Of a DNA stretch of 28,379 nt, positions 6,188 through 28,379 are shown piece by piece (within the stretch, counting starts at the first letter, position 1; every line of letters begins with the position of its first letter). A program made the translations under genes and the position numbers. The DNA comes from an uncultured Actinomycetes bacterium (GTDB lineage Bacteria > Actinomycetota > Acidimicrobiia > Acidimicrobiales > Microtrichaceae). Where the stretch lies: the NCBI GenBank assembly GCA_903930035.1, contig CAIYXG010000470.1, positions 1-28,379 on the forward strand, written 5' to 3'. The notes under the pieces are model-generated. The model was not told the origin of the DNA. It saw only the letters and a list, made by a program, of their open reading frames with translations, and ran no database searches.

Positions 6188-6853
6188 TCAGACGGTGACC
6201 AGGATGCGGTCGGTGGCGAAGGCACCGATGCCGACCGCCCGGCCCTCGATCTCCACCGTGGCGGTGCCGTCCGGCGAGATGCCGGTGAGCACCCCGGAGT
6301 GGCCGGGGACGAGCGAGTGCGCCTCCAGGAAGTCCAGCATCCCGGGCTCGAACTCGAGCTCCTCGGGGATGCGGGTGACCGTGAAGTGGGACCCCGGGGC
6401 GATGCCGCTCAGGGCCACTGCGTCGGGCGCGGCGTAGCCGGCGCCCGGGATGGGGTTGCCGTGCGGGCAGGTGGTGGGGTCGCCCAGGACCCGGGCAAGG
6501 GCCTCCTCGACCGGCTCGGAGATCACGTGCTCCCACTTGCCCGCCTCGACGTGGGCGTCGGCCCAGGAGAGCCCGAGCACGTCGGTCAGGAAGCGTTCGG
6601 CCAGCCGGTGGCGCCGGACGACCGCCTCGGCGAGGGACACGCCGGTGGGGGTCAGGCTGATGGTGTCGCCGACCGTGATCAGGCCCTCCGACTCCATGCG
6701 CCGGATCATCTCGGACACCGCCGGACGGCTGACGCCGAGGCGCTCCGCGATGCGGATGCGGATCACGTCGATGTCGTCCTCGCGGAGCTCCCAGATCGCC
6801 TCGCAGTACTCCTCGAAGGCGGGGTGGTACTCCCGTGACCGGTCGGTGCTCAC
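6188..6853 (-). CDS. DtxR/IdeR/MntR-family metal-dependent repressor with C-terminal FeoA(SH3)-like domain
   Basis: EEYCEAIWEL, HTH (IAERLGVSRPAVSEMIRRM), RRHRLAERFLTDVLG, WEHVIS, TCPHGNPIPG. GTG start at 6853. Confidence 0.9.
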   Translation of the reverse strand: MSTDRSREYHPAFEEYCEAIWELREDDIDVIRIRIAERLGVSRPAVSEMIRRMESEGLITVGDTISLTPTGVSLAEAVVRRHRLAERFLTDVLGLSWADAHVEAGKWEHVISEPVEEALARVLGDPTTCPHGNPIPGAGYAAPDAVALSGIAPGSHFTVTRIPEELEFEPGMLDFLEAHSLVPGHSGVLTGISPDGTATVEIEGRAVGIGAFATDRILVTV

Positions 6854-6860
6854 GGGTCGG

Positions 6861-6866
6861 AGTGTA
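6861..6866 (-). promoter_or_regulatory. -10 element (TACACT) for a leaderless transcript of the DtxR-family gene
   Basis: TACACT fits the actinobacterial TANNNT consensus and ends 7 nt before the GTG start. No Shine-Dalgarno is present. Confidence 0.6.
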
Positions 6867-6938
6867 CGACGTTGTCGGGCGGATCTCCGAGGGCTGTAGG
6901 TTCGGCCCCGCCACCGGCAGCACTCCAGGGGGACCCGC

Positions 6939-7787
6939 ATGACCGACCGCAACCGCCGCTTCGAGGACAAGGTCGTCTTCATCTCGGGCGTGGCCCGCGG
7001 CCAGGGCCGCTCGCACGCCGTCGCCTTCGCCAGGGAGGGCGCCCGGATCATCGGGTTCGACGCCTGCACCGACCTGCCCAACACGCCGTACCCGCTGGCG
7101 ACCGAGGACGACCTGGCCGAGACCGTCCGTCTGGTCGAGCAGGTCGGCGGTGCCATGCACGCCGTCAAGGCCGACGTCCGCGACCTCGACGCCGTGCGAC
7201 AGGTGCTGAAGGGCGGCCTCGACAAGTACGGCCGGCTCGACGTGATCCTGGCCAACGCCGGCACCTACTCGCCCGGCCCGACCCAGTGGCTCACCTCGGA
7301 GTCCTGGCAGGAGACCATCGACATCAACCTGACGGGCGTGTTCAACACGGTCCGTGCCGGGGTCAACCGGATGGTCGAGTTCGGCAACGGCGGGTCGATC
7401 GTCATCACCTCGTCCACCGCGGGCATCCGCGGGTTCTACGGCGCCCCGGCCTACAGCGCCGCCAAGCACGGCGTGGTCGGCTTCGCCCGGGCACTGGCCA
7501 ACGAGATGGCGCCCGTGAACATCCGGGTCAACACGGTGCACCCGACCTCGGTCAACACGCCGATGATCAACAACGACGTGTTCCCCCGCCTGGTGCGCAT
7601 GGACCTCGAGAACCCGACGTTCGACGACGCCGGCGAGTTCCTGGAGACCATGCAGACCATGCCGATCCCGTGGATCGAGGCCGCCGACATCTCGAACGCC
7701 ATCCTCTGGCTCTGCTCCGACGACGCCCGCTACGTCACCGGCGTGCAGCTGCCCGTCGACGGCGGCGCCATGCAGAAGTCGTCCTGA
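6939..7787 (+). CDS. Mycofactocin-associated SDR-family oxidoreductase (carveol dehydrogenase-like)
   Basis: ISGVARGQGRSHAV, family-typical GFDACTDLPNTPYPLATEDDLAET insert, NAG, YSAAKHG catalytic YxxxK, IRVNTVHPTSVNTPMI. AGGGGGA RBS 5 nt upstream. Confidence 0.9.
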   Translation: MTDRNRRFEDKVVFISGVARGQGRSHAVAFAREGARIIGFDACTDLPNTPYPLATEDDLAETVRLVEQVGGAMHAVKADVRDLDAVRQVLKGGLDKYGRLDVILANAGTYSPGPTQWLTSESWQETIDINLTGVFNTVRAGVNRMVEFGNGGSIVITSSTAGIRGFYGAPAYSAAKHGVVGFARALANEMAPVNIRVNTVHPTSVNTPMINNDVFPRLVRMDLENPTFDDAGEFLETMQTMPIPWIEAADISNAILWLCSDDARYVTGVQLPVDGGAMQKSS

Positions 7788-23915: not shown

Positions 23916-25970
23916 TCAGACGTCCAGGGACTCGCGGTCGACAAGGTCGGAGTGGTCCAGCAGGTACTGGCGCCGCCGCCCGACGTCGTTGCCCATGAGG
24001 GTCTCGAAGAGGGCCGCCGCCGCGACGCCGTCCTCCATGGTGATGCGCCGCAGGATCCGTGTGCCCTTGTCGAGGCAGGTGACCGCCAGCTCCTCGACGT
24101 CCATCTCGCCCAGCCCCTTGAACCGCACCCACTGCAGGTTCTCGGCCTTGCGGTTGCCCTTGGTCAGCTCCTCGGTGAGGTCGAGCTTCTCCTGCTCGCT
24201 GAACGCGTGCACGACCTTGTCGCCCACCTTGACCGTGTAGAGCGGCGGCTGGGCGGCGTAGACGCGCCCCTCCTCGAGGAGCGGCCGCATGTAGAGGTGG
24301 ATGAGCGTGAGCAGCAGGCACCGGATGTGGCTGCCGTCGACGTCGGCGTCGCACAGGATGATGATCCGGCCGTAGCGGGCGTTCTCGATCTTGAAGTCGG
24401 CGCCCTGGCCCGCCCCGACGGCGGTGAAGAGCGCCTGCGCCTCGGCGTTCTCGACCACCTGCTTGAGGGTGGACTTGCCGGCGTTCACGACCTTGCCCCG
24501 CAGCGGCAGCACGGCCATGTACTCGGCGTTGCGGCCGGCCTTGGCGGGCCCTGCGGCCGAGTCGCCCTCCACGATGAGCAGCTCGGAGTCCTCGCCGTGC
24601 TGGCGGCAGTCGGCGAGCTTGTCGGGCATGCCGGCCGAGTTGAGCTGGGCGGCGCGGCGCTTGGCGTCCTGGGTGGCCTTGGTGCTGACCCGGGTCAGCA
24701 CGGCCTGCGCCACCTTGTCGCGCAGCGCGGCGACGTGGGTCTTGCGGCCGACCGACTCGATCCAGTTGGTGAGCCCGGCCCGCACGACCTCGTTCACGAT
24801 GCCGGTGATGGGCGGCGTGCCCAGCTCCTGCTTGGTCTGGCCCTTGAACTGCGGCTCGGGGAACGTGACCTTGACGGCGGCGACCAGCCCCTCCTGGACG
24901 TCGGTCTTCTCGGCCCGGTCCTGGCCGGACCTGGACAGCTTGGCCAGCTTCTTGGTGCCGGTCAGGAGCGTGTCGTTGACCACCTTGGTGAGTGCCCGGT
25001 CGAACCCGGCGACGTGCGTGCCGCCCTCTGGGGTGGGGATGGTGTTCACGAAGCTGGTGACCACCGTGTCGTAGCCCTTCGTCCAGCGCATCGCGACGTC
25101 CACCGTGCACTGCCGCTCGACCACGGTCATCTTCCCGTCGACCGGGACCTTCTCCTCGAAGGTGCCCGTCCCGTGGAGCGTGATGACCTCGGTGACGGCC
25201 TCGCCCACGGACTGCGAGTCCACCAGGTCGGCGAGGCCGCCCTTGGCGACGAACTCCTCGTCCTTCCCGCCGCTGCGCTTGTCCGACAGGCGGACCTTGA
25301 GGCCGGGCACCAGGAAGCACACCTGGACGCAGTGCTCGCGGACGAGCTGCGGGTCGATGCTCAGGCCGGGGTCGAACACGTCGAGGTCGGGCCAGAACCG
25401 GACCCGGGTGCCCGTGCGCTTGGGCGGCACCTTGCCGGTGACCTTGAGGCTGGACCCGGGCTTGAAGCCGCCCTTGGCGTCGATCTGGCCGGGGACCCGT
25501 TCGACGAAGCAGAGGCGGTGCGTGGCGCCGTCCCGGTCGACCTCGGCCACGACCTTGGCCGCGAGCGCGTTGACGACCGACGCGCCGACGCCGTGCAGGC
25601 CGCCCGACGACGAGTAGGCGCCGGTGCCGAACTTGCCGCCGGCATGGAGCTCGGTGAACACGATCTCCAGCGCCGTGCGCGCGCCGTCCTTTTTGCCGAT
25701 CGGGATGCCGCGGCCGTTGTCGGACACCTCCACCGAACCGTCCTTGTGGAGCGTGACCTCGATCAGGTTGGCGAACCCGGCGGCGGCCTCGTCCACGGCG
25801 TTGTCGATGAGCTCCCACACCAGGTGGTGCAGGCCCTCCGGCCCCGTGCCACCGATGTACATGCCCGGCCGCTTGCGGACGGCGTCGAGGCCGGCGAGCA
25901 GCTGGATGCTCTTCTCGTCGTAGGAGTCGTTCGTGCGGTTCGTCGGTCCGCTGCCGGTCGTGCGCGCCAT
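23916..25970 (-). CDS. parE: Type IIA topoisomerase subunit B, actinobacterial topoisomerase IV (ParE)-like
   Basis: GHKL motifs (ELIDNAVDE, DNGRGIP, LHAGGKF, GLHGVGASVVNALA), TOPRIM EGDSAAGPAK, PLRGK, DADVDG, RFKGLGEM. 684 aa, without the long proteobacterial GyrB insert. The departure from the GyrB EGDSAGGSAK consensus favours the ParE-like paralog. Confidence 0.85.
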   Translation of the reverse strand: MARTTGSGPTNRTNDSYDEKSIQLLAGLDAVRKRPGMYIGGTGPEGLHHLVWELIDNAVDEAAAGFANLIEVTLHKDGSVEVSDNGRGIPIGKKDGARTALEIVFTELHAGGKFGTGAYSSSGGLHGVGASVVNALAAKVVAEVDRDGATHRLCFVERVPGQIDAKGGFKPGSSLKVTGKVPPKRTGTRVRFWPDLDVFDPGLSIDPQLVREHCVQVCFLVPGLKVRLSDKRSGGKDEEFVAKGGLADLVDSQSVGEAVTEVITLHGTGTFEEKVPVDGKMTVVERQCTVDVAMRWTKGYDTVVTSFVNTIPTPEGGTHVAGFDRALTKVVNDTLLTGTKKLAKLSRSGQDRAEKTDVQEGLVAAVKVTFPEPQFKGQTKQELGTPPITGIVNEVVRAGLTNWIESVGRKTHVAALRDKVAQAVLTRVSTKATQDAKRRAAQLNSAGMPDKLADCRQHGEDSELLIVEGDSAAGPAKAGRNAEYMAVLPLRGKVVNAGKSTLKQVVENAEAQALFTAVGAGQGADFKIENARYGRIIILCDADVDGSHIRCLLLTLIHLYMRPLLEEGRVYAAQPPLYTVKVGDKVVHAFSEQEKLDLTEELTKGNRKAENLQWVRFKGLGEMDVEELAVTCLDKGTRILRRITMEDGVAAAALFETLMGNDVGRRRQYLLDHSDLVDRESLDV

Positions 25971-26038: not shown

Positions 26039-28378
26039 TCACCACCGGCCCGTCCCGACGGCCAGGAACCGGCGCTTGGTGGCCTTGGACGCCAGGTCGC
26101 GCGCCGTGTGGGGGACGGTGAGCGGCTCGGCCTTGGGGTCCGGCCGGGTGGGGTTGTCCGCCTGGCCCACCACCACCAGCAGGCCCTCCTCGGGGCCGAC
26201 GTAGGCCCAGTCCAGCTGGGACTCGGTCCGGAACTTGGTCAGCCGGAGCCCGCCGGTGGCCCGACCCTTGAGCGGGATCTCCGCCGCGTCCGTGACCTTC
26301 GCGGTCTGGGCGTCGGACACCGTGAGCACGATCGTGTCGTCGTCGGCGGTCCCGGCCGCCACCACGGTCGCGCCGTCGGTGAGCTTCATGCCGGCGACGC
26401 CGCCCGCGCCGCGGCCCTGGACGGCGACCGTGCCGGCGCCGCACCGCATGGCCTGCGCGTTCGACGACACGGTCACGACCTCGGCCGAGTCGGGGGCCGG
26501 GAAGACGGCGACCACCTTGTCGCCGGGCTTGAGCTTGATGCACGGCTTGGCGGCGGGGGTGCCGCAGACCTCCTCGACCGTGAGCCGCTTCATGACGCCC
26601 TGGGCGGTGACCAGCATGAGCGGCGGCGGGACGTCGCCCCCGGCCGGGGCGGTCACCACCGACAGGACCTCCTCGCCCTTGTCGAGCGGGGCCAGCTCGC
26701 CGACGGCGGTGCCGCGGGACCGCCCCGTGACCTCGCCGAGCGCCATGACCGTGGTGGGGCAGACCCGGCCGCGGCTGGTGACCAGCCACAGCTGCCCGTG
26801 CGTGGTCGTCCCGACCCGGGCCGTGAGGACGTCGTGGCGGCCGAACGTGCCGGCCCGCCCGCCGTCGACCGGCTCGCGGCCCAGCAGGCCCGACTGCGAG
26901 AGCGTCACGACGCACGGCTCGTCGGCCACGTTGGCGATCTCCTCGGCCATCGCCTGCTCGAGCGTGACGTCGTCGAGCTGGTCCGGCGTGAGCACACGGG
27001 TGCGCCGCGCCGTGCCGTACTTCTCGGTGAGCTCGTCGAGCTCCTTCAGGACGATGGTCCGGCGCCGCTGCTCGGAGGCCAGGATCTTCTCGAAGTCGTC
27101 GATCCGGGTGCGCAGCTCGCCCGCCTCGGTCTCGAGCTCCAGCTTGGCCAGGGCGGTGAGCCGACGGAGCTGCATGTCCAGGATGTGGACGGCCTGGACC
27201 TCCGACAGGTCGAGCTCTGCCATGAGGCGGTCGCGGGCCTCGGTGGCGTCCTGGGAGGACCGGATGATGCTGACGACCAGGTCGATGGCGTCGAGCGCGA
27301 CCAGCAGTCCCTCCACCAGGTGCAGCCGGCGGCGCGCCTTCTCCAGGCGGAACTCGGTGCGGCGCCGGACGACCTCCAGACGGTGGTCGACGTAGTGCTG
27401 GCACAGGTCGTAGAGGCCGACGGTGGTGGGCACCCCCTCGACGAGCACGACGTTGTTCACGCCGAACGTCTCCTCGAGCGGGGTCTGCCGGTAGAGCTCG
27501 GTGAGCACGGCCCGTCCGTTGGCCCCGGGCCGCAGCTCGATCTCGATGCGCAGACCGGTGTGGCGGTCGGAGGTGTTCTTGACGTCGGTGACCATCGGGA
27601 GCTTGTCGGTGCGCATGAGCTCCTGGATGCGCGAGACGACCCGCTCCGGGCCGACCTGGTAGGGGAGCTCGGTCACGACGATGCCCTCGCGGGCCCGGGT
27701 CAGCTGGACCACCTCGGCGGTGGCGCGGACCCGAAAGCTGCCGCGCCCGGTCTCGTACGCCTCGGCCAGGCCGTCGTCGACCACGATGCCGCCCGAGGGG
27801 AAGTCGGGTCCCGGTACCAGGGCCATGAGCTCGGCCGTGGTGGGCTTCGGCCGGCGCTTGGTCATGACGAGCCGGATGGCCTCGGTGATCTCCCGCAGGT
27901 TGTGCGGCGCCATGTTGGTGGCCATACCGACGGCAATACCGGCTGCTCCGTTGACGAGCAAGTTTGGAATTTTGGTCGGTAATACGCTTGGCTCTTGAAG
28001 GGAGTCATCGAAGTTAGGGCGGAAGTCGACCGTTTCTTTTTCGAGGTCGTCGAGCATTTCTTCGGCAATTTTTCGCAAACGCGCTTCGGTGTAACGCATG
28101 GCTGCCGGACTATCGCCATCGACAGAACCAAAGTTTCCTTGCCCGTCTACTAAAGGATAGCGCAAAGACCAAGGTTGCGCCATGCGCACCATAGTGTCGT
28201 AAACAGAGCTGTCGCCGTGCGGGTGGTATTTTCCGAGTACTTCACCGACAATTCTTGCTGATTTCTTGTAGGGACGATTCGAGAATACGCCGAGATCTTG
28301 CATGCCGTAGAGCACGCGGCGGTGTACCGGTTTGAAACCATCGCGTACATCTGGGAGTGCGCGCGATACAATAACAGA
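26039..28378 (-). CDS. parC: Type IIA topoisomerase subunit A (5'-truncated by the window end); ParC-like body with a GyrA-like, low-GC N-terminal segment
   Basis: Frame is open to the window edge ([21 protein letters not shown]...), with [19 protein letters not shown] (catalytic Tyr), [16 protein letters not shown]. The CTD has no canonical QRRGGKG GyrA-box at its start. Confidence 0.85.
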
Positions 28379-28379
28379 C
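27935..28379 (-). other. Compositionally foreign segment (about 50% GC) encoding a canonical GyrA N-terminus
   Basis: Hand counts of 28/60 GC (27961-28020) and 33/60 GC (28141-28200). Frequent A/T-ending codons (AAA, TTA, ATT, CAA, TCT, GTA) that are nearly absent from the rest of the window. Confidence 0.9.

Follow-up and report, generated by a model that had tools for sequence, protein, structure and literature searches.

Mosaic gyrA and parC alleles are found in Streptococcus pneumoniae, where they result from interspecies recombination with viridans streptococci. In these alleles, foreign sequence has replaced, in frame, the quinolone-target portion of the gene for a type IIA topoisomerase A subunit. 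The donors are close, the replaced gene is orthologous, and host sequence is present on both sides of the replacement. Actinobacteria provide a second point of reference: a second type IIA topoisomerase, formed by a ParC/ParE-like pair (NCBIfam NF004044, "DNA topoisomerase (ATP-hydrolyzing)").

A third point of reference is technical. In de Bruijn-graph metagenome assembly, sequence conserved between species gives rise to chimeric nodes and chimeric contigs (PMC8171044). In these nodes, described for MetaVelvet and its successors, a conserved stretch becomes a node with several paths in and out, and the wrong pairing of paths yields a contig from two genomes; the species concerned are evolutionarily similar.

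The window analysed here (28,379 nucleotides) corresponds to contig C470 in full. C470 is the longest contig in a fragmented metagenome-assembled genome (MAG) that comprises 2.5 Mb in 570 contigs, at 73.3% GC, with 78% completeness and 3% contamination. A preliminary description of this DNA, made from the letters alone, had noted a low-GC GyrA N-terminus fused in frame to a high-GC ParC-like gene (Table 1), and ranked misassembly as the likeliest cause. That ranking is now strongly supported, notably by the following: a native 5′ end on another contig, C173; the terminal position of the foreign piece; the gene of a congener; and synteny. The end of C470 is almost certainly an inter-genome chimera, which the assembler would have produced by mis-resolving a graph node at a shared 29-mer.

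Table 1. Features at the 3′ end of the window (contig C470)
Feature	Coordinates	Strand	Basis
Native ParE/GyrB-family B-subunit gene, directly downstream of the ParC-like gene	23916..25970	-	NCBIfam GyrB/ParE models, 2.8e-203
Native high-GC 3′ part of the ParC-like type IIA topoisomerase A-subunit gene (~619 codons plus stop)	26039..27896	-	GC3 0.98; homology
Join	27897..27925	-	Exact 29 nt, coding strand ATGGCCACCAACATGGCGCCGCACAACCT, encoding 10 residues; present in the native and foreign (gyrA) genes alike
Foreign low-GC segment from the 5′ part of gyrA of a Bacteroidota organism, cut off by the contig end	27926..28379	-	GC 52%, GC3 0.52; protein and DNA matches

A composition switch within an open frame

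On the minus strand, the frame stays open from the contig end (28378) to a stop codon at 26039, and within it composition switches sharply. In 300-nt windows, the GC fraction is 0.70-0.77 up to ~27900-27930 and then 0.51-0.53 to the contig end; overall, GC content goes from ~72% to 52% across the switch. Codon usage changes with it. On the 3′ side of the join (1857 nt), GC3 is 0.981; on the 5′ side (453 nt), it is 0.523. The change from 0.98 to 0.52 is thus abrupt, taking place across a single 29-nt stretch. A switch in GC and codon usage had been placed near 27911-27935, and both the windows (with their drop at ~27930) and GC3 confirm it. The absence of a frameshift is likewise confirmed, the frame being open throughout, and the codons and peptides quoted earlier are all present in C470. 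A preserved frame is to be expected, because the two genes are homologous and codon-aligned where they join.

The low-GC end is exceptional for this MAG. At 52.2% GC, the terminal 450 nt lie below every MAG window of that length (15,229 of 15,229; mean 73.3%, SD 3.1%, z = -6.8). Stepped 300-nt windows with less than 58% GC number only five in the whole MAG, and two of these are the low-GC end of C470.

The low-GC fragment is from a Bacteroidota gyrA

The low-GC fragment comprises residues equivalent to 27-177 of Escherichia coli GyrA. Its best PDB matches are GyrA chains, and query residues 1-150 align without gaps to chain residues 27-176 of full-length, 875-aa GyrA chains. This alignment puts Ser at position 83, Asp at position 87, and Tyr at position 122, bearing out the QRDR residues and the catalytic Tyr read earlier from the translation. 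Among NCBIfam models, those for gyrA score best (316.6 bits, vs 255.6 for the top ParC equivalog model), the whole-protein equivalog cut-off being out of reach for the fragment alone.

In a scan of species-representative genomes, the fragment is 93% identical in amino acid sequence to GyrA from a Crocinitomicaceae (Bacteroidota) MAG, with the identity evenly spread across five 30-aa blocks; nearly all of the best 80 matches carry Bacteroidota names. The description of this part as canonical GyrA resembling that of Bacteroidota therefore holds. At the DNA level, the fragment matches L099 (ENA ORFA01000103), a contig from a marine metagenome with ~48% GC over the 12.7 kb examined, at 202 of 203 nt (99.5%). 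The GyrA of L099 is ordinary: it continues for 732 residues and scores 959.4 with the NCBIfam gyrA model (cut-off, 902). Both the scores of the fragment and the full-length L099 gene, which passes the equivalog cut-off, place the fragment in gyrA (NF004043 / TIGR01063).

Could this segment have entered the host genome by real homologous recombination between phyla, replacing the 5′ third of the parC-like gene, including the quinolone-target region? A frame that stays open through the junction, with catalytic and QRDR residues intact in the foreign part, is what such an event would leave, and 29 nt of identity could in principle support it. However, the segment is nearly identical to the gyrA of a free-living Bacteroidota organism and shows no sign of amelioration (GC3 0.52 vs 0.98). 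Moreover, a ParC-like protein with the N-terminal domain of GyrA would need to pair with the host ParE-like subunit, which also counts against recombination.

The high-GC part is a host ParC-like gene

The best NCBIfam models for the high-GC part are those of the GyrA/ParC family. Its product is 94% identical in amino acid sequence to the ortholog from the congener G001 (L005:1247-3088) and 60-74% identical to those of family members. The MAG also contains a native gyrB-gyrA pair, on contig C26; this GyrA is 35-38% identical to the ParC-like protein. It contains the sequence QGRGGRG, whereas a GyrA-box-like QxRGGxG was not seen, by eye, at the start of the ParC-like C-terminal domain. A ParC-like second A subunit was found in 12 of the 12 family-level relatives searched; open frames around the orthologues of relatives measure 813-1147 aa, which agrees with the ~810-820 codons expected for the rejoined host gene. 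The neighbouring B-subunit gene scores below both the gyrB and the parE equivalog cut-offs; it is conserved and syntenic in relatives. A protein-atlas search with the native part returned generic topoisomerase clusters only.

Thus, the high-GC part belongs with the ParC-like, second type IIA A subunits (NF004044 subfamily). The gene encodes the ParC-like subunit of a type IIA topoisomerase that the host has in addition to the gyrB-gyrA pair on C26; the designation does not imply decatenase activity. The original reading of this part as ParC-like stands, as it is a paralogue of C26 gyrA and adjoins a ParE/GyrB-like gene. The native part and this neighbour form a pair like that of other actinobacteria, and nothing about it is unusual once the foreign 454 nt are removed.

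The MAG contains five WhiB-family genes; among 14 control genomes, WhiB matched only Corynebacterium. The MAG is therefore of the Actinomycetota and the fragment of the Bacteroidota, so that the two sources come from different phyla.

The native 5′ end is on another contig

A tblastn search of the MAG with the protein identified, besides C470 and C26, a third locus, on C173. The minus strand of C173 encodes a high-GC N-terminus (GC3 0.995), which is preceded by its own upstream region and extends through the 29-mer of C470. Past the 29-mer, ~111-115 nt (C173:1-115) of ~55% GC and GC3 0.68 lead to the contig end. C470 and C173 are thus mirror images.

In the congener, a single gene accounts for both native pieces: the C173 N-terminal piece (98% amino acid identity, L005:659-1234) and the C470 piece are contiguous there. 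The low-GC N-terminus of C470 is only 57% identical to this gene. Three better-assembled relatives (G003, G007, and G008) provide the flanks: C470:18000-26000 matches one side of the gene, and C173:790-5800 matches the other. (The tblastx synteny comparison was run with stricter filters, as looser filters gave spurious high-GC frame matches.) The displaced native part is thus present elsewhere in the assembly, and is adjacent to C470 by synteny in all three relatives. Contiguity in the congener, together with this synteny, indicates that the host has a normal, all-high-GC ParC-like gene, which was split by assembly at the 29-mer. The preliminary description had named an observation that would refute real biology, namely an intact native 5′ end of parC in another part of the assembly; such an end is found on C173, broken at the very same 29-mer.

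The tail of C173 has its own origin. It is GyrA-like: across 50 residues, it is up to 80% identical in amino acid sequence to the Bacteroidota-type loci compared, vs 55-59% for the native sequence at that place. A simple reciprocal swap, with the C173 tail as the continuation of the Bacteroidota gyrA in C470, was considered and rejected: C173:1-185 is only 72% identical in DNA sequence to the L099 gyrA. As the tail matches neither the L099 organism nor the host, a third source must be assumed, and at least three community genomes share the 29-mer.

These observations weigh heavily on recombination. A genuine mosaic has host sequence on both sides in one molecule and occurs without a separate native copy. 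Here, the foreign piece is the terminal 454 nt of C470, and host-like sequence never resumes before the contig end; the native 5′ end is in the same MAG; and the congener gene is unmixed. The likeness to the S. pneumoniae alleles, an in-frame foreign replacement in the quinolone-target part of an A-subunit gene, thus goes only so far. In C470, the donor would be of another phylum, the gene is a paralogue, host sequence does not resume, and the assembly contains the native 5′ end elsewhere. Recombination would need a co-assembled wild-type strain, a foreign segment that ended the contig by chance, codon usage that had not ameliorated, and a GyrA cleavage domain able to work with a ParE-like partner, each of which lacks support. 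We consider it extremely improbable. The same very low probability applies to a join that is real in part of the population, with the GyrA cleavage and quinolone-target domain swapped in and C173 representing the co-assembled wild-type strain.

The join at the 29-mer

In coding orientation, the C470 junction reads ...GGAGCAGCCGGTATTGCCGTCGGT, then ATGGCCACCAACATGGCGCCGCACAACCT, and then GCGGGAGATCACC... The 29-mer is present, exactly, in three places: C173 (native), L099 (Bacteroidota), and C470. The join therefore falls in sequence that is identical in both sources, and that would be about as long as an assembler word. The codons for the 10-residue motif are universally conserved. That the join runs through a shared k-mer had been proposed at the outset. 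There is indeed a shared stretch, but the 24-mer quoted for it contains GGT where the native gene has GGC; it overlaps the true 29-mer (27897-27925) but is slightly misplaced.

A four-way alignment (C470, C173, the congener locus L005, and L099) displays the exchange of partners. C470 is L099-like 5′ of the 29-mer and congener-like 3′ of it; C173 shows the reverse pattern. Block by block, C470 matches L099 at 30, 30, 30, 30, and 29 of 30 positions on the 5′ side and at 10 of 30 immediately 3′, so that identity to L099 collapses just past the 29-mer. Each side of the join thus matches a different genome with its own, unmixed gene: the full gyrA of L099, and the full ParC-like gene of the congener.

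This suggests a simple model for the origin of the two contigs. The Actinomycetota host (~73% GC) has an ordinary ParC-like gene, and a Bacteroidota member of the same community has an ordinary gyrA. As both genes carry the same 29 nt, these would form a node with several entries and exits in the assembly graph. The path for C470 would have left the 3′ part of native parC for the 5′ part of gyrA from the Bacteroidota, ending after 454 nt; that for C173 would have gone from the 5′ part of native parC into a further low-GC gene of gyrA type, ending after ~115 nt. The true host gene is the C173 part and the C470 part joined through the 29-mer, and the fusion protein would exist in no cell. A search of public assemblies for the exact chimeric protein gave no match. 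We infer the mis-resolved path itself from the sequences.

The proposed node resembles those of the MetaVelvet type in that a conserved stretch, here the 29-mer in gyrA/parC, is followed just beyond by foreign sequence, in which both C470 and C173 end. It differs in its participants: organisms from different phyla rather than evolutionarily similar species; paralogous genes (gyrA vs parC-like); and at least three sources at the node.

Other contig ends and public contigs

Contig ends of the MAG were ranked by the drop in GC in their terminal 120 nt. Three ends high in this ranking show further joins at strongly conserved motifs, in gene families confirmed by Pfam. In C309 (L101), a tail of 28% GC (positions 1 to ~115) is joined to the 3′ part of the aspartyl-tRNA synthetase gene (aspS; Pfam GAD and tRNA-synt_2), just after ...GVDRLVALLVGEE; this probably is another chimeric end. 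At the 3′ ends of C16 (L102) and C555 (L103), the terminal ~120-180 nt fall to ~55% GC: in C16, within the gene for ribosomal protein S2 (rpsB), after GVHFGHQTRRWNPKM; and in C555, within the PurH bienzyme domain (purH), after LRYGENPHQ. The defect of foreign tails is systemic in this MAG.

The recurrence of the pattern in unrelated conserved genes is a further argument against recombination at C470. It also bears on another account, a laboratory chimera: template switching at the 29-nt identity, in PCR or in multiple-displacement amplification, would have created a chimeric molecule ahead of assembly, and the assembler would then have followed real but artefactual reads. Short identities in conserved genes do promote template switching, and the end result would look alike. 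Nevertheless, foreign tails at different conserved genes on several contig ends fit systematic mis-resolution of the graph better, and two different foreign partners at one and the same 29-mer fit rare chimeric molecules worse. We regard a laboratory chimera as very unlikely, and favour mis-resolution of the graph node by the assembler.

Several other stretches were noted. By GC alone, the ranking also lists terminal drops at C100, C169, C423, C243, C225, and C189. The 16.6-kb, high-GC contig C19 contains an internal stretch of 56% GC (6701-7000), the translation of which, read by eye, presumably is the N-terminus of a YidC-type membrane insertase; this stretch could reflect either natural membrane-protein composition or an internal chimera.

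Public contigs related to the foreign fragment also merit mention. On the 5′ side of the 29-mer, the marine-metagenome contig L100 (ENA OREM01000700, ~609-1140) is identical to C470 for ~210 nt; identity then drops to ~60% around the AAMRYTE motif. L100 has a gyrB 3′ end upstream, and position 1 of L099 falls exactly at the AAMRYTE motif. L100 itself seems to be chimeric within gyrA. Finally, Bacteroidota-type gyrA N-termini (79-87% identical to the query) were encountered at five loci in public MAGs (L027, L033, L044, L054, and L086), the labels of which are Akkermansia, Nitrosopumilus, Omnitrophica, Burkholderiales, and "uncultured archaeon". Other public MAGs, too, thus seem to include gyrA contigs that are mis-binned or chimeric.

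Implications

Together, these comparisons strongly support the reading of the C470 junction as an assembly artefact, not a gene swap between phyla; biologically, it would represent nothing novel. Its importance is for quality control only. The remedy is to trim C470 at ~27925 and C173 at ~115, and to join both through the 29-mer. Because several short foreign tails occur at conserved genes in this MAG, composition oddities at its contig ends should be taken as artefacts by default.

Annotated untrimmed, C470 gives a spurious topoisomerase fusion, in which the quinolone-target region is that of a Bacteroidota organism although the genome is actinobacterial. In that state it could pass for inter-phylum transfer, or skew both surveys of resistance alleles and marker-gene phylogenies, the latter because gyrA is a common marker.
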